Counted from the first letter of the stretch, positions 2,789 through 23,086 are shown. The stretch is DNA of 64,000 bases from an uncultured Alphaproteobacteria bacterium (GCA_958295695.1 OY282363.1:1738225-1802224); one strand, 5' to 3'. Made by a program: numbers and translations. The notes: generated by a model not told the origin, from the letters alone.

Positions 2789-3866
2789 CGGCCTCGCTCC
2801 GGCGCATCCTGTCGATCAACCGGGCGTAGAATCCGAGGTTGTGGCGCGTGGCCAGCCGCTCCGCCGCCGCATCGCCGATCTTGAAGAGATGATGAAGGTA
2901 GGCGCGCGAGGGGCCTTCGGGATCGAGGGACGGGTCTAGGGCCGACCGGTCTCGCGAGTGCCGTTCATGCTCCATGTAGAGAACATCATAAGATTTATTA
3001 TTTTTCAATATATTATCACTATTATCTAATGTAATATATAAACGCTTGCGACGAGCGTTGCGAGTGGGCAGGGCGCAGTCGAACAGACGGTAGCCGGCCC
3101 GCCAGGCCGCGAGCATGTTTTCCGGCTTTCCGATGCCGAGCGCATGCTTGGGGGCGTCCGCGGGCAGCAGGTCCGCGGTCATGGCGACCATGTCCGTCAG
3201 CAGGCCGTCGTCGCCGATGGGCCAGCCGCCGAAGCCGAAACCGTCGAAACCCATGCCGGCGAGCTCGCCGGCGCAACGTCTGCGCAGGTCGGGATCGGCG
3301 CCGCCCTGGACGACCGCGAAGAGCAGGGGGCGCCCGGCGGCGGCGGCGCCCGGTTCGCAGCCGGCCCGGGCGACGAATTCGTCGCGGCAGCGCCGCGCCC
3401 AGTCGAGCGTCCGTTCGATCCCGGCCCGCTGCGCCTCGGCGGGATCGTTGGGGTGGGTGCACTGGTCGAGGCAGAACAGGATGTCGGCGTCGAGATCGAG
3501 CTGGCGCCGGATACACTTCTCGGGCGTGAGGAGGCGCTTCCTGGCGCCCTTTTCGTGCCGGTAGACGAAGCCCCTGTCGGTCACGCTGCCGAGGCCCGCG
3601 CCGGACGCGGCCATCGACCACGCCTGGAAGCCTCCGGAATCGGACGCGGCGATGCCGTTCCAGCCCATGAAGCGGTGGACGCCGCCCACGGCCTTCACGG
3701 TCGAGGCGCCCGGCCGCGTGGCGAGATGCAGGCTGTTCACCATCAGCGCCTCGACGCCGCATTCGGCGAGGTCGCGGGAATCGAGACCCTTCACGACCGC
3801 GCGCGTGCCGTCGGGCAGGAACGCCGGCAGGCGGAGCGGGCCGCGGCGGGTGCCGAGGACCTTCAC
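2781..3866 (-). CDS. tRNA-guanine transglycosylase (TGT) fold protein, divergent (no Zn-cysteine cluster)
   Basis: The 361-aa product carries TGT motifs: LPAFLPDGT, SDSGGFQAW, LFCLDQCT, FGFGGW, ALGIGKPEN, LFDCALPTRNARR, SRAYLHHL, RHNLGFYARLI. The CxCxxC zinc motif is replaced by SLDPEG. The GTG start at 3866 overlaps the rsmI stop (GTGA). Confidence 0.85.
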   Translation of the reverse strand: MKVLGTRRGPLRLPAFLPDGTRAVVKGLDSRDLAECGVEALMVNSLHLATRPGASTVKAVGGVHRFMGWNGIAASDSGGFQAWSMAASGAGLGSVTDRGFVYRHEKGARKRLLTPEKCIRRQLDLDADILFCLDQCTHPNDPAEAQRAGIERTLDWARRCRDEFVARAGCEPGAAAAGRPLLFAVVQGGADPDLRRRCAGELAGMGFDGFGFGGWPIGDDGLLTDMVAMTADLLPADAPKHALGIGKPENMLAAWRAGYRLFDCALPTRNARRKRLYITLDNSDNILKNNKSYDVLYMEHERHSRDRSALDPSLDPEGPSRAYLHHLFKIGDAAAERLATRHNLGFYARLIDRMRRSEADG

Positions 3867-4573
3867 GCCCGGCCCTTCGTCCGCGGGAACTTCGGGTTGT
3901 CGCCGGCGATCACGACCGTGACCTCGCCCCTGGGCGTCTCCTCCGAGAACCGCGCCGCGAGGGTCGAGATCCAGCCCCGGGCGGTTTCCTCGAACATCTT
4001 GGTGAGCTCGATGCAGACCGCCGCCCTGCGGTCGCCATAGACCTCCAGCGCGTCGGCCAGCAAGGCGCCCAGCCGGTGGGGCGATTCGAACAGCACCTGG
4101 GTGTGGCCGCTGCCGGTTTCGGCGGCCAGGAAGGTCCGCCGCTTGCCGGCCTTGCGCGGCGGGAAGCCGCGGAACGTGTAGCTCGCCGTCGGCAGGCCCG
4201 AGAGCGCGAGCGCGGTGGCGACCGCCGTCGGTCCCGGAACCGCCTCGACCGCGAAACCCTCTTCGGTGGCCATACGGACCGCGCGAAAACCGGGATCGCT
4301 GAGCCCCGGCATGCCGGCGTCGGTGGCGAGCCCCACCTTGAGACCCCGGCGCAGCAGGCCCGCCATGCGTTCCGTGGCCCGGTCCTCGTTATGGTCGTGG
4401 CAGGAGAAGACCACGGGCGGGCTGCGCAGGCCGAAGCGCTCGTAGAGCTTGCGTGTGCGGCGCGTGTCCTCGCAGGCGAGAGCGTCGAGCGAACCCAGGG
4501 TATCGAGGACCCGCTTCGAAATGTCGTCCAGGTTGCCGATAGGCGTGCCGATCAGGATGAGCGTGCCCGTCAT
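3863..4573 (-). CDS. rsmI: 16S rRNA (cytidine1402-2'-O)-methyltransferase RsmI-like
   Basis: An internal ATG at 4573 in ORF 3863..4714 is preceded by GGAAGG. RsmI pattern: LILIGTPIGNLDDISKRVLDTLGSLDALACEDTRRTRKL...ATDAGMPGLSDPGF...VPGPTAVATALALSGLP...FESPHRL...ELTKMFEE. Confidence 0.85.
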   Translation of the reverse strand: MTGTLILIGTPIGNLDDISKRVLDTLGSLDALACEDTRRTRKLYERFGLRSPPVVFSCHDHNEDRATERMAGLLRRGLKVGLATDAGMPGLSDPGFRAVRMATEEGFAVEAVPGPTAVATALALSGLPTASYTFRGFPPRKAGKRRTFLAAETGSGHTQVLFESPHRLGALLADALEVYGDRRAAVCIELTKMFEETARGWISTLAARFSEETPRGEVTVVIAGDNPKFPRTKGRA

Positions 4574-4632
4574 GCGCCTTCCGTTCTTGACCCCGCGTCC
4601 GCGCCCCGTTTCCATGCCCGCGTTCGGGCGGG

Positions 4633-6729
4633 TTGTCGAGCATGGCGGGTTCGAAGGAGACCCTCGCGGCCCTGGTGGCGCCGCGGCGCATCGCGGTGGT
4701 CGGCGCCACCCCACGCGAGGGCGCGGTGGGCAACCGGGTGATCCGGCATGTCGCCGGGCCGCGCTTCGCCGGCGGCGTCGTCGCGGTCAACCCGGGCTAC
4801 GGCGAGGTGCTCGGCCGCACTTGCCACCCTTCGCTGGAAGCGCTTCCCGACGCCGCCGATTGCGCGGTCATGTGCGTCGGCGACAACCGCGTCGAGGCGG
4901 CCGTCGAGGACGCCGCGCGCGCCGGCGTCAAGGCGGTCGTCCTGCTCGGCCGCCTCTACGATCCGGGCCACGGCGGCCCCACGCTCCCGGAGCGTGTCGC
5001 GGGCCTCTGCCGGGAGGCCGGCATGGCCGCCTGCGGGGCGAACTGCATGGGTGTGTTCAACACCATCGACGATGTGTGCCTGGCCATGAGCCACCTGCCC
5101 GGGCTGGACCGGCCCGGGCGCATCGGCCTGCTGTCCCACAGCGGCTCGACCTGGTCGGGGCTGGGCGGAAATCACCGGCCGTTGCGTTTCGGGATCGGCG
5201 TCTCGATGGGCAACGAGCTCGTGACGGGCCTGGCGGACTATCTCGAGTTCCTCGTCGAACGTCCCGAAACCTCCGCCATCGGTCTCGTGCTGGAGACGGT
5301 GCGCGACGGCGACCGTTTCGTCGCCGCCGCGGAGGCGGCGGACAGGGCCGGCGTCCCCCTCGTCGCCCTGAAACTCGGCAAGACCGAGAAGGCGCGCGGG
5401 TTCGCGCTCTCCCACAGCGGCGCCCTGGCGGGCGACGAGCGGGTCTACGACGCCGTGTTCCGCCGCCGCAACGTCATCGGCGTCGACACGCTCGACGAGA
5501 TGGCGGATACGCTGGAGGCGATGGCCTGCGGCCGCGCGCCCACGGCCGACACGGTTGGAATCCAGACAGATTCCGGCGGCGAGCGGCAGCTCATCGCCGA
5601 TCTCGCCGAGCGCAACAAGGTGCCGCTCGCTGTCTTCGGCGAGGCCACCCGGGCGGCGCTGGCCGGGGTGCTCGATCCGGGCCTGGAGCCCGACAACCCC
5701 GTGGATTACTGGGGCGAGGGAGGTCTTCCCGTCGCGCCCAGGGTCATGGACGCGATCGCGCGGGCGCCGGAGGTCGGGGTCGTGGTCTTCTCCACCAACA
5801 TGGTGTCGGGCCGTGCGCTGCTCAACGCCTCGACCGCCGCGCTCGAGGACGCCCACCGGGCGACGGACAAGCCCTGCATGATGCTGGCGAACATCTCCGA
5901 CGCCGTCGACGCCGGGGAGGCCGCGCGCCTCCGCGACGCGGGAATCCCCGTCCTTTCGGGCACCGAGACCGGTCTCAGGGCGATCGGCCATCTGATCGGA
6001 TGGCACGCGCGCCGGAGAGAGAGCGGAGAGCGCGGCGGCGCGGTCGAACCACCGGATTCCGGGATCGTGGCGTACTGGCGTCGGCGGCTCGAGGACCGCG
6101 CGCCGGCGCCGGAGGAGGCGATCGCCATGGTCGCCGATTTCGGCGTGCCGGCGCCCGAGACCGCGGTGTGCGCGGACGAGCGGGACGCGGTCGCCGCGGC
6201 GGAACGCATCGGATTCCCGGTCGTGCTGAAGACGGCGGACCCTTCGATCCCGCACAAGACCGACGTGGGCGGCGTTGTTCTGGATATCGGGACCGATGAC
6301 GAGCTTCGCGCGGCCTACCGGGCCATGGCCGGCGCGCTCGGATCCCGCGTCCTGATCCAGCCGATGGTCTCCCCAGGTGTCGAGATGCTCGTCGGGATGA
6401 CGTCGGATCCGACCTTCGGGCCGGTCATGACCCTGGCGACGGGCGGTGTCCTGACGGAGGTGCTGGACGACGCGGTGGCGGCGGCGCCGCCGGTGTCGCC
6501 CGGCGAGGCCGCCGATCTGGTCGCCGGCCTCAAGGGTTCGGTCCTGCTCGATGGCGTGCGCGGCGCGCGGCCGGCGGACCGCGACGCGCTGGCCCGGGCC
6601 GTGTCGCGCCTCTCGGCGATGGCGGTGGCGCTCGGCGACCTGATCGGCGCGTTCGACGTCAATCCCCTGATCGTCCACGAGCGGGGCGTGACCGCCGTCG
6701 ACGCGCTGGTGACGCCGCGGGGACCGTGA
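4633..6729 (+). CDS. acetate/acyl--CoA ligase (ADP-forming) family protein (CoA-binding + ATP-grasp domains)
   Basis: The 698-aa product has an N-terminal CoA-binding pattern (RRIAVVGATPREGAVGNRV) and a succinyl-CoA-synthetase-like flavodoxin region. The C-terminal ATP-grasp region contains GFPVVLKTADPSIPHKTDVGGV. The start could be the ATG at 4642 rather than the TTG at 4633. Confidence 0.8.
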   Translation: MSSMAGSKETLAALVAPRRIAVVGATPREGAVGNRVIRHVAGPRFAGGVVAVNPGYGEVLGRTCHPSLEALPDAADCAVMCVGDNRVEAAVEDAARAGVKAVVLLGRLYDPGHGGPTLPERVAGLCREAGMAACGANCMGVFNTIDDVCLAMSHLPGLDRPGRIGLLSHSGSTWSGLGGNHRPLRFGIGVSMGNELVTGLADYLEFLVERPETSAIGLVLETVRDGDRFVAAAEAADRAGVPLVALKLGKTEKARGFALSHSGALAGDERVYDAVFRRRNVIGVDTLDEMADTLEAMACGRAPTADTVGIQTDSGGERQLIADLAERNKVPLAVFGEATRAALAGVLDPGLEPDNPVDYWGEGGLPVAPRVMDAIARAPEVGVVVFSTNMVSGRALLNASTAALEDAHRATDKPCMMLANISDAVDAGEAARLRDAGIPVLSGTETGLRAIGHLIGWHARRRESGERGGAVEPPDSGIVAYWRRRLEDRAPAPEEAIAMVADFGVPAPETAVCADERDAVAAAERIGFPVVLKTADPSIPHKTDVGGVVLDIGTDDELRAAYRAMAGALGSRVLIQPMVSPGVEMLVGMTSDPTFGPVMTLATGGVLTEVLDDAVAAAPPVSPGEAADLVAGLKGSVLLDGVRGARPADRDALARAVSRLSAMAVALGDLIGAFDVNPLIVHERGVTAVDALVTPRGP

Positions 6730-6824
6730 GTGTCCGGTGGCGCGGCCCATGCAGATTTCGCATGGATGGGGCGACGAAATCCCGCTACCGCGCGGGCCGG
6801 CGGAAAACTATCTCGCCCCTCGAC

Positions 6825-6849
6825 GGCCCCGGACGAAGGCGGGCCTTTT
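6825..6849 (+). terminator. possible intrinsic terminator after the acyl-CoA ligase gene
   Basis: GGCCCCG / CGGGCC stem (one bulged C) with loop GACGAAGG, followed by TTTT at 6846-6849. It lies ~100 nt after the stop at 6729. Confidence 0.35.
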
Positions 6850-6868
6850 GCCGGCGAGGAACAAGGCC

Positions 6869-7039
6869 ATGTCCAACATTCTCCGCAAGCTGCGCGCCGA
6901 GTGGCGGGTGAAGAGCATGCGCCGGGAGCTCGCCGGCCTGACGGACGGGCAGCTCGACGATCTCGGCATCCATCGCGGTCAGATCGCCGATCTGGCGCGG
7001 TACTGCCACGGCCTCGGGCCGCGTCCAGACAGCATCTGA
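6869..7039 (+). CDS. DUF1127 domain small protein
   Basis: An internal ATG at 6869 in ORF 6737..7039 is preceded by GAGGAA. The 56-aa product MSNILRKLRAEWRVKSMRRELAGLTDGQLDDLGIHRGQIADLAR has the DUF1127 signature (L..L.D..L.DIGI.R..I). Confidence 0.8.
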   Translation: MSNILRKLRAEWRVKSMRRELAGLTDGQLDDLGIHRGQIADLARYCHGLGPRPDSI

Positions 7040-7197
7040 CATCCGCCCGGCTTCCTCCGGCCCGGAGTATCGCGCGACAGGGTTCCCGAGGCTGGCGTAC
7101 TTCGGACGCCACGACAAACCCTGTCCGCGCCGTCCGAGGCCGATTGCCGCGCGACTCGCCAACCTGTATCGTCCGGCCGGTCAGCCGGAGGCGTCCG

Positions 7198-8358
7198 ATG
7201 AATCCGACCGAGATGTACGGCCCGCTCCCGGGCGGGTTGCACGACGATCCGCGCCGATCCTACACGATGGCCTCGCGCTACTACACCGACCCCGCGGTTC
7301 TCGACGCGGAGATGGACAGGATCTTCGCGCGTTCGTGGCTCTTCGTGGGTCACGAAAGCCGGATCGCCGAACCGGGAAGCTACAGGACGGTCACGGTCGC
7401 CGACGAGAGCCTGGCGCTGGTCCGCGGCCGCGACGGCGAGCTCCGCTGCTTCTACAACGTGTGCCAGCATCGCGCGCACCGCATCCTGACCGGCGAGGGC
7501 GCGCTCAAGCTCACCATGGTGTGCCCCTACCACGGCTGGGCCTACAACCTGGACGGCACACTGAGGACGGCGCGCGGGTGCGAGAACGTCGAGAACTTCG
7601 ACAAGAGCGAATTCGGCCTCGAGCAGGTGCGTGTGGAAACCATGCTGGGTCTGATCTTCGTCAACCTCGACCCCGGCGCGCGGCCGTTCCGCGAACAATA
7701 TGCCGGACTGGAGGAGGACATCCTGCGCTGGATGCCGCGCGCCGACGGGCTCGGCTTCGCCCGCGCGCGGGATTTCACGATCGAGGCCAACTGGAAGGTC
7801 GTGATCGACAACTTCCAGGAATGCTACCACTGCGAGCCGGCGCATCCGGCCTTCGTCGATATGGTGGCGATGCCGACCTACCGCAACAGGACGCACCGGT
7901 TCTGGTCGGCCCAGACCTCGGACAAGCCGAGTTCCAGGAACAGTTCCGCCTACGCCTTCGAGACCGGTGACGTGGATTTCGGCTATGCGGGCTACTTCGT
8001 CTGGCCGAACCTGACGATCTGGCTGATGCCGGGCGAGCCGAACCTCATGACCCTGCAGATGCTGCCGGACGGTCCGGAACGTTGCGTCGAACACCTGCAT
8101 TGGCATTCGCTGGGCGGCGAACTGACCGGGCAGGCCGTGTCCGCCATCGACTATGTCGTCGATGTTCTGCAACCCGAGGACATCTCGATTTGCGAAAGCG
8201 TCCACCTGGGCCTGAAGTCGCGCGGCTACGACCGGGGCCGCTTCATCGTCGACCGCGACCGGAGCCACATCAGCGAGCACGGCGTCCACCACTTCCACAT
8301 GCTGGTGATGCAGGCGCTGGAGGGCGGACCGTCCCCGGCGACACAGGCCGCGGAGTAG
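7198..8358 (+). CDS. Rieske [2Fe-2S] aromatic-ring-hydroxylating oxygenase alpha subunit family protein
   Basis: An internal ATG at 7198 in ORF 6730..8358 is preceded by GGAGG. The Rieske motif is CQHRAH..17..CPYHGW. The mononuclear-iron region is NFQECYHCEPAHP. No reductase partner lies in the window. Confidence 0.85.
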   Translation: MNPTEMYGPLPGGLHDDPRRSYTMASRYYTDPAVLDAEMDRIFARSWLFVGHESRIAEPGSYRTVTVADESLALVRGRDGELRCFYNVCQHRAHRILTGEGALKLTMVCPYHGWAYNLDGTLRTARGCENVENFDKSEFGLEQVRVETMLGLIFVNLDPGARPFREQYAGLEEDILRWMPRADGLGFARARDFTIEANWKVVIDNFQECYHCEPAHPAFVDMVAMPTYRNRTHRFWSAQTSDKPSSRNSSAYAFETGDVDFGYAGYFVWPNLTIWLMPGEPNLMTLQMLPDGPERCVEHLHWHSLGGELTGQAVSAIDYVVDVLQPEDISICESVHLGLKSRGYDRGRFIVDRDRSHISEHGVHHFHMLVMQALEGGPSPATQAAE

Positions 8359-17649: not shown

Positions 17650-18000
17650 CTATTTTTGCACCCAGTCGCCGCTTGCGTCCATGTAGTAGCCGCCGGCGGG
17701 CAGGCTCTGGATGATTTTCTCGCCGGCCACGATCTCGACCGCCCGAAGCGACGCGCCGTTCTTGTCGGCCGGCTCTTCGTATCTGGCGCGGCGCCGCCCG
17801 TTGACGTCGGCCATCGGATCGAGCGCCCAGCCGGGCGCCGAGGGGTCGCGCGGGGCGAGGTAGCCGTCGGGGCGTTCGCCGAGATAACCCGAGGCGCGCG
17901 CCTCGCCGAGGCTCTGCGCCCGGGCCGCGCCGGCGGACGCCAGCATCGCGCCGGCCGCGATGGCGAGGAAGGAACGGCGCGGGAGATCAGAACGACTCAT
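17650..18000 (-). CDS. ydbL: YdbL-like periplasmic protein (DUF1318)
   Basis: The 116-aa product has a signal peptide with an RR motif. It matches the remembered E. coli YdbL pattern (LGEAR.SG.LGE..DGYL ... VN..R...Y ... G.Y....G.WV.K). Confidence 0.75.
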   Translation of the reverse strand: MSRSDLPRRSFLAIAAGAMLASAGAARAQSLGEARASGYLGERPDGYLAPRDPSAPGWALDPMADVNGRRRARYEEPADKNGASLRAVEIVAGEKIIQSLPAGGYYMDASGDWVQK

Positions 18001-18190
18001 CGTCGTCCTCCAGGAGATCTTCGATGTCCTTCTCCAGCTTCACGCGAACCTCCCGCTCGATCTTGACGTTGAGATCGATCACGATCGGGTCCTTGGGCGC
18101 CTCGACGCGAACGGTCGGCTGGAAGGCCGCCATGAACAGCGCGACCAACGCCGCTTGATACGTGGGAAGGGTTCTTCGAGAGGACCGCAT
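17987..18190 (-). CDS. ynbE: YnbE-like small protein (lipobox cysteine absent)
   Basis: In the 67-aa product, VRVEAPKDPIVIDLNVKIEREVRVKLEKDIEDLLE matches the YnbE core (IEV.APKEPI.IN.NVKIEHE). The position of the lipidated Cys reads Phe (AAFQPT). Confidence 0.7.
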   Translation of the reverse strand: MRSSRRTLPTYQAALVALFMAAFQPTVRVEAPKDPIVIDLNVKIEREVRVKLEKDIEDLLEDDDESF

Positions 18191-18221: not shown

Positions 18222-18229
18222 AACGCGAT
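18222..18229. repeat. target-site duplication, left copy (AACGCGAT)
   Basis: Identical 8-mers lie at 18222-18229 and 19931-19938, each separated from the 23-bp inverted repeat by one base. Confidence 0.8.
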
Positions 18230-18230
18230 C

Positions 18231-18253
18231 GGAATTTCCTAGTTTAGGGTCTT
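18231..18253. repeat. left terminal inverted repeat GGAATTTCCTAGTTTAGGGTCTT
   Basis: It is the exact reverse complement of 19907-19929. Confidence 0.9.
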
Positions 18254-18448
18254 TATATCTGGGCGGTTGACTCTGCGCCGCCAAGGATTCCAAGCTCCCT
18301 CCATCGCCAAACCAACCATGGGACGCCCCTGCGTCGGGCTGCCCGTGAATACAAGACCGTGCGAGCGGGAATCAGCGGGGACCCTGAAACCCATGGTTGT
18401 TTGGCGACCGGCCCGGCACTCCCGCCGGCCGGAACGCTGGAGCGAGTC

Positions 18449-19075
18449 ATGAAGCGGATGATGATTGCGGCCCTCGCGGCACTGCTGAGCGGCGCGGCCT
18501 CGGCTGAGGACTACGAGGAGATGCGTCCCAAGGACAGCAAGCTGCGCCTCGGCGTCCTCGGGGAAGAAGCGGAGGGCTCGTGGTTTCTGGAGGAAAAGAA
18601 ATCGTTTGGGACGTTCCGCTGCGACTACGGTTATTGGGGCTTCGACGACGATCAGCGGAGCAGGGTCAAGGCCCAATACTGCTGGTCGGACAACGTCTCC
18701 TCTTGGGACGACAGTGGCGGCTACACTGGCGAGGAGGCCGACACGGACGAGTTCCTGGAATGGAACGATGAGACACGCCTTGCCGACAGCAGGGACAACG
18801 CCGAGGAAGGCCCTACCATCGAAACCGTCGTCGGAGATGTTGTCGTACACGCCTTCGACGTGGAGAAGGACACGTCTTGGAAGACCTACAGGGAGTGCAT
18901 GGGGTTTCACATGGTCTGGGGCAAGGGGTACGGCGTATCGCGCAAACTCTACGCCAAGTCGCTGACCTTCTACGCCTGCGACAACGCCACCAGCACCATG
19001 TCGGAGGCCAAGCTCCTCCGCATTCTGTCCAGCTTCAGCATCGAAGGTGAGTTCGACGCGCTGGTAGAGAACTAG
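18449..19075 (+). CDS. hypothetical secreted acidic protein (passenger gene of the IS-like element)
   Basis: An internal ATG at 18449 in ORF 18359..19075 is preceded by GGAGCGAG. The signal peptide is MKRMMIAALAALLSGAASA. The mature part is D/E/W-rich with 4 Cys. I recognise no family. Confidence 0.6.
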   Translation: MKRMMIAALAALLSGAASAEDYEEMRPKDSKLRLGVLGEEAEGSWFLEEKKSFGTFRCDYGYWGFDDDQRSRVKAQYCWSDNVSSWDDSGGYTGEEADTDEFLEWNDETRLADSRDNAEEGPTIETVVGDVVVHAFDVEKDTSWKTYRECMGFHMVWGKGYGVSRKLYAKSLTFYACDNATSTMSEAKLLRILSSFSIEGEFDALVEN

Positions 19076-19078
19076 CCG

Positions 19079-19833
19079 TCAGTCTTCCAGCGCGAGCGGA
19101 ATGGTCTTGTTCAGCTTGGGGAAGGCGCGGTTGAGGTCGCCCTTGAAGCGGTTCCAGTTGGGGGCCGCCCGCATGAGCGCCATGACAGCCGCCGAGTGCT
19201 GGTTGAGCTTGACGTGGCCGGGGTCCGGCGTGAACCATTGATGGTGCGTCGTGCGCCGCCGTCCTGTCGGCAGTGTCGGATTGATCCGCTTCAACTCATC
19301 CAGGACGCCGGGCGCCAAGCGTTCGTAGACGAGATCGTTGGTGTAGTGGCCGATGACGGCGGGGCGCTTGTGGCCGTCCGGGCCGGGCCGTCGCCCTTCG
19401 TGCCCTTGCGAGGCTTGCCACCGATAAAGGTCTCGTCCATCTCGACGATGCCGGCCAGAAGCAACCGGTGCTCGGCTTGGGTCATGGCCCGCTTGATCTG
19501 CATGGCGATCCGCCAGGCCGTGTTCTTGTTCACGTCGAGATCGCGGGAAAGCTGGAGCGCCGACAGGCCCTTCTTGGCGTTCAGCATAAGCATGATCGCC
19601 AGAAACCACTTCTGGAGCGGCAGGTGCGTGCGGTGGAAGATCGTCCCGACCGTCACGCTGAACGAGGTCTTGCAGTCGTAGCAGCGATGGCGGCGGCGTG
19701 CGTCGTTGCTGGGAGCGGTGTTGGCCGACCCGCAATAGGGGCACTTCGGCTCGCCCTTCCACCGTGCCGCCTCAAGATGAGCGACGCAGGATTCTTGGTC
19801 GGGAAACCACTCGAAAATCTGTATGATGTTCAT
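19079..19833 (-). pseudogene. IS1595-type transposase N-terminal region (Zn-ribbon + HTH) continued, after a -1 frame change, by a P63C-like phage-type C-terminus; DDE catalytic domain absent
   Basis: From the ATG at 19833 the sequence MNIIQIFEWFPDQESCVAHLEAARWKGEPKCPYCGS...RHRCYDCKTSFSVTVGTIFHRTHLPLQKWFLAI...GLSALQLSRDLDVNKNTAWRIAMQIKRAM...VEMDETFIGGK matches the IS1595/ISXO2 N-terminus. Near 19388-19400 (GGCCCGGCCCGG) the sensible reading moves to the frame of ORF 19079..19762. That frame reads HKRPAVIGHYTNDLVYERLAPGVLDELKRINP...HHQWFTPDPGHVKLNQH...LMRAAPNWNRFKGDLNRAFP. Confidence 0.65.
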
Positions 19834-19906
19834 CGGCAATCCGTCCTTTCGTGGCGCGTTCGATCCGGTGACAGGATGAACATGACCCCCGATTGGGCGG
19901 ATTATC

Positions 19907-19929
19907 AAGACCCTAAACTAGGAAATTCC
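19907..19929. repeat. right terminal inverted repeat AAGACCCTAAACTAGGAAATTCC
   Basis: It is the exact reverse complement of 18231-18253. Confidence 0.9.
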
Positions 19930-19930
19930 A

Positions 19931-19938
19931 AACGCGAT
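19931..19938. repeat. target-site duplication, right copy (AACGCGAT)
   Basis: Identical to 18222-18229. Confidence 0.8.
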
Positions 19939-19942
19939 TGTG

Positions 19943-22900
19943 TCAGAAAACGGACAGGCGTTCTCGGATTTCTTCCGGGAGGCGCCACGCGCCGAGGCCG
20001 TGGAGCAGGATCTCGTCGAGGTCGCCGGCGAGGTTGACGTTGAGTTCGATCGGATAGCCGTCATGAAAGCCCGGATTGGCCCCGGCGATATGGACGCCGA
20101 GTTCCGCCGCGCCGCCCGCCGCGCGGTCGATGTCGATCGCCAGGGCGCTGAACCGGAAGTCCGACAGGACATCGAGCACTTGTTCCATGTTCTCGTCCAT
20201 CGGGCCGAAGGGCGCTGGCCGTCCGTCCGGAATGTAGCGCAGCAGCCCGGCGGAATCGGCGTCGAGCCGGCCGTGCGCGATGACGATGTCGCCGCCCGTC
20301 ATTCGGACGGGAATGGAGCCCGTCAGTCTCGCGTCGGTCTCGATCCATGGAACGTCGAGGTCGTCCAGCAGCGTCGCGAGGTCGACGCCCTGGATGTCGA
20401 GCAGCGCCTCGTTGCCGTCCGGCGCGAGGCGGAGGACCGAGGGGCGGGCCGCGATGCGCCCGCCGGCGAGCCCGGCGGACGCGGCGTCGACGCGCAGGCT
20501 GCCGTCGCCGGGGAGCGCGAGGGTGACCGCGAGGTCGGTCAGGGGAAGGCCGGCATCGAGCCTTTCGGCCGCGAGCGTCTGTTTCGGCGGGGTCGAGAGC
20601 GGATCGACGTTGGAGAACGTCACCTCGCCTTCGAGGCCCTCGATGGCGACGCCGCCGTTCCGGCCTGACAGGCCGAGAAGGGAGAGCGTGAGGTCCGATG
20701 ACGCGACGCCGTCGTCGATCGCGATCTTCCCATGGAGCTCGACGGCGCCGGAGACCTCCTCCAGAAGGCCGCCATAGAGCGGAGACACCTCGTTCGGCTG
20801 GCTCCCGCCGGGCTCGAACCGGATCGGCGGGACGCGGATCAGCGCGCGAAACAGGTCGTCCGACGGCCGGTAGCTCGACTCCACGTTGGCGAGGAAGCGC
20901 CGGTCGCCCATGTGGAGAGTGCCGTTGAAGCGGACATCGTCGCCCAACGGCCAGACCGGCATGACCGCAACGTCGGCGGCCAGCGGCGCGAAACGGGCGG
21001 GTTCGCGGAGGTCTTCGATGACCCGGATGTCGGCGGTGGCCTGCGGCCAATCCGACAGGCCGTTGTTGTACGTGAAGAGGAGCCGGATATCGGCCAGACG
21101 GAGGTCGGGTCCCTCGACGAGGATGTCGCCGCCCTCGGTTTCGACCGTCCCCTGGAGGTGATGGCGGCCCAGGCTGCCGAACCGGACGCCCATCGACGGC
21201 AGAGTTCCGTCGACAGCCGCGATCGTCCCGCCGTCCTCGATCACGTCGAAACGCACTCCGGCCGGGCCGGTCAGCAGGCGCGCGTCCCAACTCCAGTCCT
21301 CGCCGAAGCGTTCCAGGACCAGCAACGGCAGCAGCTCGGCCTCGAGCTTCACGGAGGTCGCGCGATGCGAGCGGAGACGCGGATGCCGGAGGGTCCGGAT
21401 GTCGATCCAGGCGGTGTCGGCTAGGCGGACGTTGAGGCCGTTGTCCACCAGTTCGAAGTCGAGCGGCAGCTCGGCCAGGACCCCCGTGGCGGCCGTATCG
21501 AGGACGGTCACCGTGTCGGCTTGAAAGAGCGCGACGGGGTCGGCCTCCGCGCGCGTCGCCCCGTCCGCATGGCCGATTCTCAGCGGGAGGTCGAGGACGA
21601 TGGCGGTAGCGTCAGCGCCGGCGGCCGAGAGCGTGTCGAGCCTGGCCCGCAGGCTCGCCGCGCCGTCGAACGCGGCGGGCGCGCCCGCGATACCGCCGGC
21701 GACGCGGATGGCGCCCGTCGCGCTCCGGGGCGCGAGCGCGCCCGAGGCGGCGAACTCGAGCGCGGAAACATCGAAGGCGGCCAGCGCGCCATCGGGAGTC
21801 AGCTCCGCGTCGCCGCGGATGGAAAGCCGGCCGTCGAGGTCCCCGCCGCTCCTCAAGGAAGCGTCCAGGGCCGCCGCGATGGCGATCGACTCGCCCGAGA
21901 CGGTCGCGTCGGCGACGATCCCCTCCGGTGGAAGCGTCAGGTCGAACGGACGGTCGAGAGCCGCCGCGACGATCCCGCCCGCCGCCTCGGGCGGAGGCAG
22001 GCGCGCGCCCAGGATCGCCCCGCCCGGCCGCGCGGTCAGGCGCAGACGCCGCCCGTCCGCGGCGATGTCGAATGACAGCGCCGAGGCCTCGACGGAAAAC
22101 CGGTCGGACAGGGACATGGCCCCGGTCTCCAGGTCGATCCGGCCCGTCAGGGCGATGGCGTGGAGGTCGAGCGGCCGGTCGGGTGGAACGAAGGCCTCGA
22201 ACGAGACGTCCAGGCTCGCGGGGCCATGCAGATCGAGCGAATCGACCATGGGCGGGGTCATGGAGTCGCGAACGGCGAACGCGCCCGTCGCGGCGACGCG
22301 GAGCCGATCCCCGGCCATGCCGGAGACGATCGAGACGGCGGCCGAGAGCGGCGCCTCCTCGACGCCGAAACCGATGTCGGCGACGAACGAGCGGCCGTCC
22401 CACGACCCTTCGGCGGTCAGGCCGCCGAGGTCCGGGCCGCCCGCGGCGACCTCGGCCTCGGCGAGCGAAACGACGACCCTGTCGCGGCCCGAGACGGGGT
22501 CGGGTTCGAGGGACAGGACGCCGGACACGTGGCCGAACGCGCCGTCCACGCGCCATCGGCCGGAGCCCGAGACCGATGCGCCGGTCGATTCCAGGGCGGC
22601 GTCGAGCCGTGCGCGGATCGTGTCGAGCGGATGGACAAGGGCGATCTCGGCGTCCTCGATGACGAGGGCCGCGAAGGGGAGCGGTTCGCGGAGCCCGTTT
22701 CCGTCATCGCGCCGGTTCAGCAATCCGGCCAGAGGAGACGCCGGGACGCCGTCCCCGTCGAAACGGATCGCGAGATCGACGCCGGCGAGGCGCACCGATT
22801 CGACCCGCCCGTCGAGAAGCCGCCACGGACGAAAGGACAGTTCGACGCGGCCGACCGCGCCGGCCCCGGGAACGGAGACGCCGGTCAGCACCATGCGGCC

Positions 22901-23086
22901 GGTTTCGACCTCGGTCACGGTGTAGGCGGCGCCGGCCAGGGGCGTCCCGGAGATCCCGAGGCGCACCAGCCGGTCCGCGATCTCGTGGCGCGCGGCGAAC
23001 CAGACCGCCGCGACCGCGACCGCCGCGGCGACCGCCAGGATCGAAAGACGGCGGATCGGCCCCGGGAGAGGGCGGAGGAAGAACAC
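19943..23086 (-). CDS. ydbH: YdbH-like AsmA-family large envelope protein
   Basis: The 1047-aa product has an N-terminal membrane anchor (LSILAVAAAVAVAAVWF) and a long repetitive beta-rich body. The YdbH-type C-terminus reads LRYIPDG...FRFSALAIDIDR...GVHIAGANP...PIELNVNLAGDLDEIL. It is syntenic with ynbE-ydbL as in E. coli. Confidence 0.75.
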   Translation of the reverse strand: MFFLRPLPGPIRRLSILAVAAAVAVAAVWFAARHEIADRLVRLGISGTPLAGAAYTVTEVETGRMVLTGVSVPGAGAVGRVELSFRPWRLLDGRVESVRLAGVDLAIRFDGDGVPASPLAGLLNRRDDGNGLREPLPFAALVIEDAEIALVHPLDTIRARLDAALESTGASVSGSGRWRVDGAFGHVSGVLSLEPDPVSGRDRVVVSLAEAEVAAGGPDLGGLTAEGSWDGRSFVADIGFGVEEAPLSAAVSIVSGMAGDRLRVAATGAFAVRDSMTPPMVDSLDLHGPASLDVSFEAFVPPDRPLDLHAIALTGRIDLETGAMSLSDRFSVEASALSFDIAADGRRLRLTARPGGAILGARLPPPEAAGGIVAAALDRPFDLTLPPEGIVADATVSGESIAIAAALDASLRSGGDLDGRLSIRGDAELTPDGALAAFDVSALEFAASGALAPRSATGAIRVAGGIAGAPAAFDGAASLRARLDTLSAAGADATAIVLDLPLRIGHADGATRAEADPVALFQADTVTVLDTAATGVLAELPLDFELVDNGLNVRLADTAWIDIRTLRHPRLRSHRATSVKLEAELLPLLVLERFGEDWSWDARLLTGPAGVRFDVIEDGGTIAAVDGTLPSMGVRFGSLGRHHLQGTVETEGGDILVEGPDLRLADIRLLFTYNNGLSDWPQATADIRVIEDLREPARFAPLAADVAVMPVWPLGDDVRFNGTLHMGDRRFLANVESSYRPSDDLFRALIRVPPIRFEPGGSQPNEVSPLYGGLLEEVSGAVELHGKIAIDDGVASSDLTLSLLGLSGRNGGVAIEGLEGEVTFSNVDPLSTPPKQTLAAERLDAGLPLTDLAVTLALPGDGSLRVDAASAGLAGGRIAARPSVLRLAPDGNEALLDIQGVDLATLLDDLDVPWIETDARLTGSIPVRMTGGDIVIAHGRLDADSAGLLRYIPDGRPAPFGPMDENMEQVLDVLSDFRFSALAIDIDRAAGGAAELGVHIAGANPGFHDGYPIELNVNLAGDLDEILLHGLGAWRLPEEIRERLSVF

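Follow-up and report, generated by a model that had tools for sequence, protein, structure and literature searches.

The apparent fusion of an IS1595 transposase to a P63C domain in this DNA is, with a probability of about 0.9, a defective copy of a two-gene insertion sequence (IS) of the IS1595 family, made by one deletion at a microhomology, and would represent ordinary decay. Here, the window denotes the whole stretch of 64,000 nucleotides that was analyzed. We propose that the intact parent consisted of a terminal inverted repeat (IR), about 95 nt of DNA, a transposase gene (tnp; Zn ribbon, HTH and DDE, about 295 aa), a P63C gene (about 300 aa), a variable cargo, and a second IR. The start of its P63C gene would have overlapped the tnp stop, as ATGA or TGATG, placing P63C in the -1 frame, and its insertion would have produced 8-bp target duplications. 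A single deletion of 1035 bp between direct repeats GGCCCGG, reaching from tnp into P63C, would then have taken all of the catalytic DDE domain together with some 195 codons at the P63C start, presumably by replication slippage or microhomology-mediated joining. What looks like a domain chimera would thus be the scar of a deletion and not an invention. Of the three readings offered when only the sequence had been inspected (a recently decayed copy, a derivative mobilized in trans, and a recombinant recruited to another function), the first fits best.

The current open reading frame, P0001, is composed of 150 transposase residues followed by a 30-residue out-of-frame tail (Table 1). In a domain scan its residues 11-56 match Pfam Zn_ribbon_IS1595 (PF12760, E 6.3e-11), and residues 68-148 match NCBIfam transpos_IS1595, although at profile positions 1-85 of 215 only; both matches bear out the IS1595 Zn-ribbon/HTH head that the sequence-only reading had recognized and that runs on the minus strand from 19833 to about 19389. 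When protein P0003 was compared with the window by tblastn, its residues 1-153 aligned at 88% identity. The DDE domain had been reported as absent, and it is: DDE_Tnp_IS1595 matches the window ORF at profile positions 2-22 only, below threshold, and the frame-corrected product at positions 2-42, while a lenient tblastn search (E ≤ 50) with full-length queries found no further remnant of transposase or P63C in the 64-kb window (next best E 1.2). With the catalytic domain gone, the element is unlikely to transpose by itself, as had been proposed; it would be non-autonomous, moving only with transposase provided in trans by a full-length relative. In the -1 frame, the stretch from about 19389 to a stop at 19079-19081 gives a Pfam P63C match (E 2.6e-15) at profile positions 35-93 of 93. 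A P63C-like tail, suggested earlier with low certainty, is therefore present, but the domain is incomplete, its first 34 profile positions being gone. Unlike in the OrfAB arrangement of the IS1/IS3 type, this -1 frame codes for P63C and not for DDE.

The reading frames show that the predicted product of the locus is now only a Zn-ribbon/HTH fragment of 180 aa with a nonsense tail of 30 residues; the P63C remnant is probably untranslated. As a weaker corollary, the fragment could still bind the IRs and damp the transposition of full-length relatives. NCBIfam transpos_IS1595 gives the truncated P0001 83.9 bits; since this exceeds the cut-off of 75 bits, annotation pipelines will call the 180-aa ORF an "IS1595 family transposase" despite its missing catalytic domain.

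Table 1. Features of the element and its insertion site in the window
Feature	Coordinates	Strand	Size or extent	Basis or remark
Whole element	18230-19930		1701 bp	IR to IR
Left target-site duplication AACGCGAT	18222-18229	.	8 bp	Identical to right copy
Right target-site duplication AACGCGAT	19931-19938	.		Identical to left copy
Cargo-side terminal IR CGGAATTTCCTAGTTTAGGGTCTT	18230-18253	+		Also bounds L002, L094 and ~30 other loci
Transposase-side terminal IR	19907-19930	-		Perfect core, outermost base mismatched
Conserved sub-terminal segment	18254-18302	.		L094 and L079 alignments
Cargo gene P0242, signal-peptide-like N-terminus	18449-19075	+	208 aa	ORF; convergent with P63C remnant
P0001, current ORF	19291-19833	-	180 aa	ATG at 19833, stop at 19291-19293
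IS1595-family transposase 5' remnant	19383-19833	-	Codons 1-150	Zn ribbon, HTH, first ~25 DDE residues including VEMDET
P63C gene 3' remnant, without own start codon	19079-19389	-	Codons ~197-298 of 298, plus stop	Pfam P63C; L094 DNA
Deletion junction, one remaining copy of direct repeat GGCCCGG	19383-19389	-	7 nt	L094 comparison
YdbH-like gene	19943-23086	-		PF11739, E 5e-57
YnbE-like lipoprotein gene	17987-18190	-		Domain scan
DUF1318/YdbL-like gene	17650-18000	-		Domain scan

The deletion can be read directly against a close relative. The 90%-identity cluster of P0001 has one other member, P0241, a transposase of 298 aa that covers NCBIfam transpos_IS1595 completely (positions 1-215 of 215). 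Its gene belongs to an element of 2814 bp at locus L094 (5905-8718, target duplication ATTCGGAT), which carries tnp and an overlapping P63C gene of 298 aa; L094 comes from another assembly and is 4-5% divergent from the window copy. Two blocks of DNA align, window 19929-19364 with L094 5906-6468 at 95.1% identity and window 19394-19078 with L094 7475-7791 at 96.2%. The heptanucleotide GGCCCGG occurs in L094 both in tnp (6445-6451, codons 149-151) and in P63C (7480-7486, codons 196-198), at a spacing of 1035 nt or 345 codons, and the match between the two sites extends to 11 of 12 nt, GCGAYGGCCCGG. At the switch point L094 tnp reads ...CAGGGCGAC GGCCCGG ACGGCCAGCAC... and L094 P63C reads ...AAGCGAT GGCCCGG CCCGGACGGCCACAAGCGCCCC..., and the window reads ...AAGGGCGAC GGCCCGG CCCGGACGGCCACAAGCGCCCC..., its junction sequence being AAGGGCGACGGCCCGGCCCGGACGGCCACAAG. 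Relative to L094, the change from tnp to P63C thus falls inside GGCCCGG with zero bases added or lost. The missing segment corresponds to transposase residues ~151-298, that is, all of DDE beyond VEMDETFIGGKPRKGTKGDGP, and to P63C residues 1 to about 195-196, of 298. In more distant relatives, too, the parental sequences are present at each of the two sites. An in-register join at the longer match GGCCCGGACGGC, followed by a duplication of 5 nt, would yield the same sequence by a less parsimonious route.

The same comparison accounts for the change of frame. In L094 the P63C start lies 893 nt past the tnp start, natively in the -1 frame, and a loss of 1035 nt, being divisible by three (3 × 345), leaves the P63C remnant at this native offset. 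The native offset together with a deletion of a multiple of three means that no sequencing error or frameshift mutation is needed. The sequence-only reading was right about a -1 change at a G/C run, but misplaced it at 19388-19400, the run GGCCCGGCCCGG lying at 19378-19389; a frameshift mutation or sequencing indel as the cause does not survive, since the window passes at the junction from the tnp sequence of L094 straight into its P63C sequence, without a base gained or lost.

These observations bear on the possibility that the locus encodes a functional chimera, in which an IS head was newly recruited and the two parts are joined by programmed -1 frameshifting or belong to an in-frame gene hidden by a sequencing indel. 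The -1 frame is indeed open across the junction, and an in-frame protein with both Pfam domains is known: P0002, of 282 aa, joins an IS1595 head to a complete P63C domain and is 59% identical to the frame-corrected product over 100% of its length. Nevertheless, we regard a functional chimera as very improbable. The native gene offset and the multiple-of-three deletion fully explain the shift, with a junction that equals L094 and holds no indel. Read directly, positions 19378-19395 contain no slippery heptamer of the form X XXY YYZ, frame 0 across the junction being GAC GGC CCG GCC CGG. The P63C tail has 195 of its 298 residues missing, and with them the first 34 positions of the domain profile. 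Finally, the junction of P0002 (LLTGII|ALVDEATGY, breaking at GII|ALVDE) is unlike that of the window, so that P0002 represents an independent deletion in another lineage. The P0002 gene adjoins a serralysin/RTX-like gene, and on a second contig, L093, a homologous gene holds the same position, which suggests that both lie at the same chromosomal site; in L093 the fusion has in addition lost its Zn ribbon, and on the predicted proteins this is the behavior of a decaying remnant and not of a conserved new gene. The earlier suggestion of a recombinant recruited to another function is therefore disfavored, given the loss of 195 of 298 P63C residues, the absence of a start codon, and the decay of the P0002-type fusion in L093.

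Least probable of all, in our judgment, is an artifact of assembly or consensus, the real genome having a full element of 2.7 kb. The junction does lie in a short G/C-rich repeat, which is prone to indels on some platforms, but a repeat of 7 nt cannot collapse 1 kb in an assembly, the frames need no indel, and on either side the alignment runs cleanly as far as the repeat. Moreover, the identical 180-aa protein is recorded by both NCBI and ENA for a contig of 3.4 Mb.

The comparison of the two genes yielded some side observations. P0241 (L094 6001-6897) has VEMNET at a place where DET (e.g., VEMDET) stands in the window and in the other relatives inspected, and the L094 copy, otherwise intact, may be inactive should this Asp be the first of the catalytic residues. 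The transposase and P63C proteins share two short patches in the same order, GI[IV]..DE[AT] and GPDG(Q)HKR, the latter with 21 of 24 nt alike in L094 (6438-6468 versus 7475-7505). Two independent tnp::P63C deletions used one patch each, namely that of the window and that of P0002 (residues 120-135). Common ancestry of P63C and the N-terminal part of DDE (GIVEMDET versus GIIALVDEAT; GPDGQHKR versus GPDGHKR) was considered as a working idea and rejected, because an AlphaFold2 model places the P63C patch within one long helix of an all-alpha fold; the shared patches are probably due to chance and G/C-rich codons.

The boundaries of the element are well defined. The 23-nt IR core GGAATTTCCTAGTTTAGGGTCTT is found at 18231-18253 (+) and 19907-19929 (-) with 23 of 23 positions identical, and occurs exactly twice in the 64-kb window, where 0 occurrences are expected by chance (shuffled sequences gave none). 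The ends had been described as perfect, and for the core this holds; the outermost bases differ, with C at 18230 and a plus-strand A at 19930 where the IR complement has G. The transposase-side end of the window copy is accordingly TGGA, in place of the CGGA seen in nearly all relatives. One base beyond each core stands a copy of the 8-bp duplication AACGCGAT, which the sequence-only reading had left unmentioned. Inside the cargo-side IR, window 18228-18302 is 84% identical to L094 8647-8720, and window 18296-18419 is 80% identical to L079. The GC content of the element is 61.7%, versus 69.8% for the window. A scan of the element for promoters and terminators found none.

The host site is the short spacer between a ydbH-like and a ynbE-like gene. 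As the 8-bp duplication is intact, the unit between these IRs is shown to have transposed into this spacer. The genes ydbH, ynbE, and ydbL form a conserved operon in other bacteria. The element splits this set, and its insertion may be polar on both small genes.

A related question is whether the deletion preceded the insertion, the DDE domain having been lost first and the derivative then placed at ydbH-ynbE by the transposase of a relative. Such mobilization in trans would agree with the perfect IR cores and duplication, with the existence of short IR-bounded derivatives without tnp at loci L033 and L067, and with the abundance of full-length copies in related communities. However, an intact duplication is equally expected from a deletion in place, the window holds one copy of the element and no source of transposase, the junction-specific 180-aa protein comes from that single contig among ~15 billion proteins, and a junction-specific pattern of 31 nt has zero matches in JGI metagenomes. 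We consider this order of events unlikely, if still worth bearing in mind.

Other defective members of the family show comparable losses. At L033 (843-1753) an element of 911 bp is without tnp and keeps the last 34 P63C codons, with 7 of 8 positions of its duplication matching; at L067 (6656-7403) an IR pair spans 748 bp with neither gene; at L064 (283-2673) the 5' four fifths of tnp are missing; and at L013 (7791-7845) two IRs abut head to head within ~52 bp. The predicted proteins P0199 (tnp C-terminus::P63C) and P0225 (GPP34::P63C) are further debris of the same kind. The window copy thereby resembles internal-deletion IS derivatives and MITEs, in which the IRs and target duplication are kept while a deletion with short direct repeats at its ends has cost the transposase its catalytic region. 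It differs from these in its length of 1.7 kb, with half of the transposase gene and an ORF in the cargo slot still present, and in that no amplification was found in JGI metagenomes or protein records.

In the full-length relatives, the transposase gene is constantly paired with a P63C gene. When the frame-corrected product was used as a protein query, thousands of IS1595 transposases of ~295 aa were retrieved, the best of them 70-83% identical over the head. The best full-length match, L002, encodes on one strand tnp, then a P63C gene of 297 aa, then a DUF3800 gene, between IRs that have the same core with one mismatch and are flanked by the 8-bp duplication AAATATAT. L005, reached from the P63C side, has the same layout. 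A search for the IR core, four of its positions being degenerate, in a single genome from each GTDB species produced 85 blocks, from which merging of adjacent ones left 32 IR pairs to tabulate. Perfect 8/8 duplications accompany 20 of the 32 pairs, as well as L094, in the geometry of an 8-bp repeat, one base, and the IR core. A P63C gene lies directly behind a complete tnp on the same strand in all IR-bounded elements that have one (27/27), and again in L094. All full-length relatives therefore have P63C as a second gene belonging to the element itself, which contradicts the initial description of this part as a foreign, phage-type module. Element sizes range from 1968 bp, with the two genes only, to 5623 bp, and are set by the cargo after P63C.

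The two genes are tightly arranged. In 19 elements (including L002, L094, L016, L024, L058, and L061) the tnp stop and the P63C start overlap by 1, 4, or 8 nt, mostly as ATGA or TGATG, and in 18 of these 19 P63C is in the -1 frame relative to tnp. The overlap suggests that the two genes may be translationally coupled. In 23 elements neither gene is interrupted. The median dN is 0.42 for P63C and 0.19 for tnp, so that P63C evolves at roughly double the rate. Its omega values, 0.13 and 0.26, come from the only 2 of 253 pairs with unsaturated dS and so thinly sampled are consistent with purifying selection. In keeping with the constant pairing, the usual stop/start overlap, the 23 intact ORFs of ~300 aa, the omega of 0.13-0.26, and the spread over phyla described below, we tentatively propose, at somewhat less than even odds, that P63C is an integral second component of the element (a transposition cofactor, a regulator, or a target-selection factor), co-translated with the transposase and distinct from cargo, and that these elements would form an undescribed kind of IS1595 member.

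The blocks are found nearly all in metagenome-assembled genomes (MAGs) labeled Acidobacteriota, Binatia, Dehalococcoidia, Alpha- and Gammaproteobacteria, and Nitrospinales; further labels are Gemmatimonadota (Longimicrobiales), Poriferihabitaceae, Spongiihabitans, and others, so that the labels span no fewer than seven or eight phyla or lineages of phylum level. This clade of IS1595 elements with a constant P63C partner, in many phyla of uncultured bacteria, is a more interesting by-product of the analysis than the window copy itself. Several of the MAG names point, as names only, to sponge-associated lineages. The same 23-nt IR core is present in these lineages (L006-L090) with at most one or two changes. 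Many uuid-labeled MAGs may come from related sampling projects. The distribution suggests that one IS lineage may have spread horizontally, and recently, within a shared community.

The segment between the P63C gene and the far IR behaves as a cargo slot. Its limits are the P63C stop on one side and, on the other, a point ~73 nt inside the far IR, and its content differs between elements: window 18303-19077, L094 7792-8646, L002 7841-8494, and L003 6620-8062. In the window it holds P0242, which has no match in Pfam, NCBIfam, or PADLOC and no homolog in the other loci compared. L094 carries another ORF there, which has a hydrophobic stretch resembling a signal peptide, and its cargo is unrelated to window 18303-19077; in L002 the slot is occupied by the DUF3800 gene; and in L003 an N6_N4 methyltransferase-HNH protein adjoins a rearranged copy. 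As their cargo segments are unrelated, the elements of the window and L094 differ by more than the one deletion.

The family can be set against what has been described for IS1595. For this family PMC8101967 describes a single transposase gene and target duplications of 8 bp, and the literature searched adds a zinc finger at the N-terminus. According to PMC11891212 and PMC8101967, which cite Siguier, Gagnevin & Chandler (2009), some IS1595 members, termed "transporter IS" (tIS), carry passenger genes, and the passenger of ISNha5 is given as a "transcription regulator" in PMC11891212. The elements studied here share with the IS1595 family the Zn ribbon and HTH, the IRs, the 8-bp duplications, the DDE_Tnp_IS1595 domain in full-length relatives, and extra genes in some members. 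They differ from the family as described in that this clade always has a second gene, of the P63C family, which stands before any variable cargo and mostly overlaps tnp; the window copy differs further in being itself without a DDE domain. The family is a further example of IS elements blurring into small transposons. The ISNha5 subgroup, which has ends CGGnnTT and comprises large elements with passenger genes such as transcription regulators, would accommodate the element ends CGGAATT, a likeness of ends and description only.

To our knowledge, the P63C domain has no known function. In full-length relatives the domain is complete (profile positions 1-93), and the full-length IS-borne protein matches phrog_2384, a phage family of unknown function, end to end (E 1e-99). 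An AlphaFold2 model built on an alignment of 42 sequences is all-alpha, with a pLDDT of 79 and a pTM of 0.45. The protein has no match in PADLOC or NCBIfam; a role as a defense gene had been considered and was rejected on the lack of a PADLOC match. The IS-borne protein is thus like the P63C proteins of phages and plasmids (PF10546; phrog_2384), although the plasmid homologs appear to stand alone. The latter are 25-44% identical and annotated as "P63C domain-containing protein", and the two plasmid genes inspected adjoin methyltransferase, ATPase, or integrase genes, with no IS1595 gene adjacent. The plasmid collection holds no relative of this transposase above 42% identity, the IS1595 transposases there reaching ≤41%. 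In the literature searched we found no paper covering both P63C and IS1595, and the pairing of tnp with P63C offers an experimental handle on the role of P63C. In L091 (Methylorubrum populi pMPPM01, 3423-7268) and in L003 (6001-8062), two contexts unrelated to each other, a large DNA methyltransferase gene is immediately preceded by a stand-alone or rearranged P63C gene. This adjacency may point to some connection with restriction-modification or anti-restriction functions.
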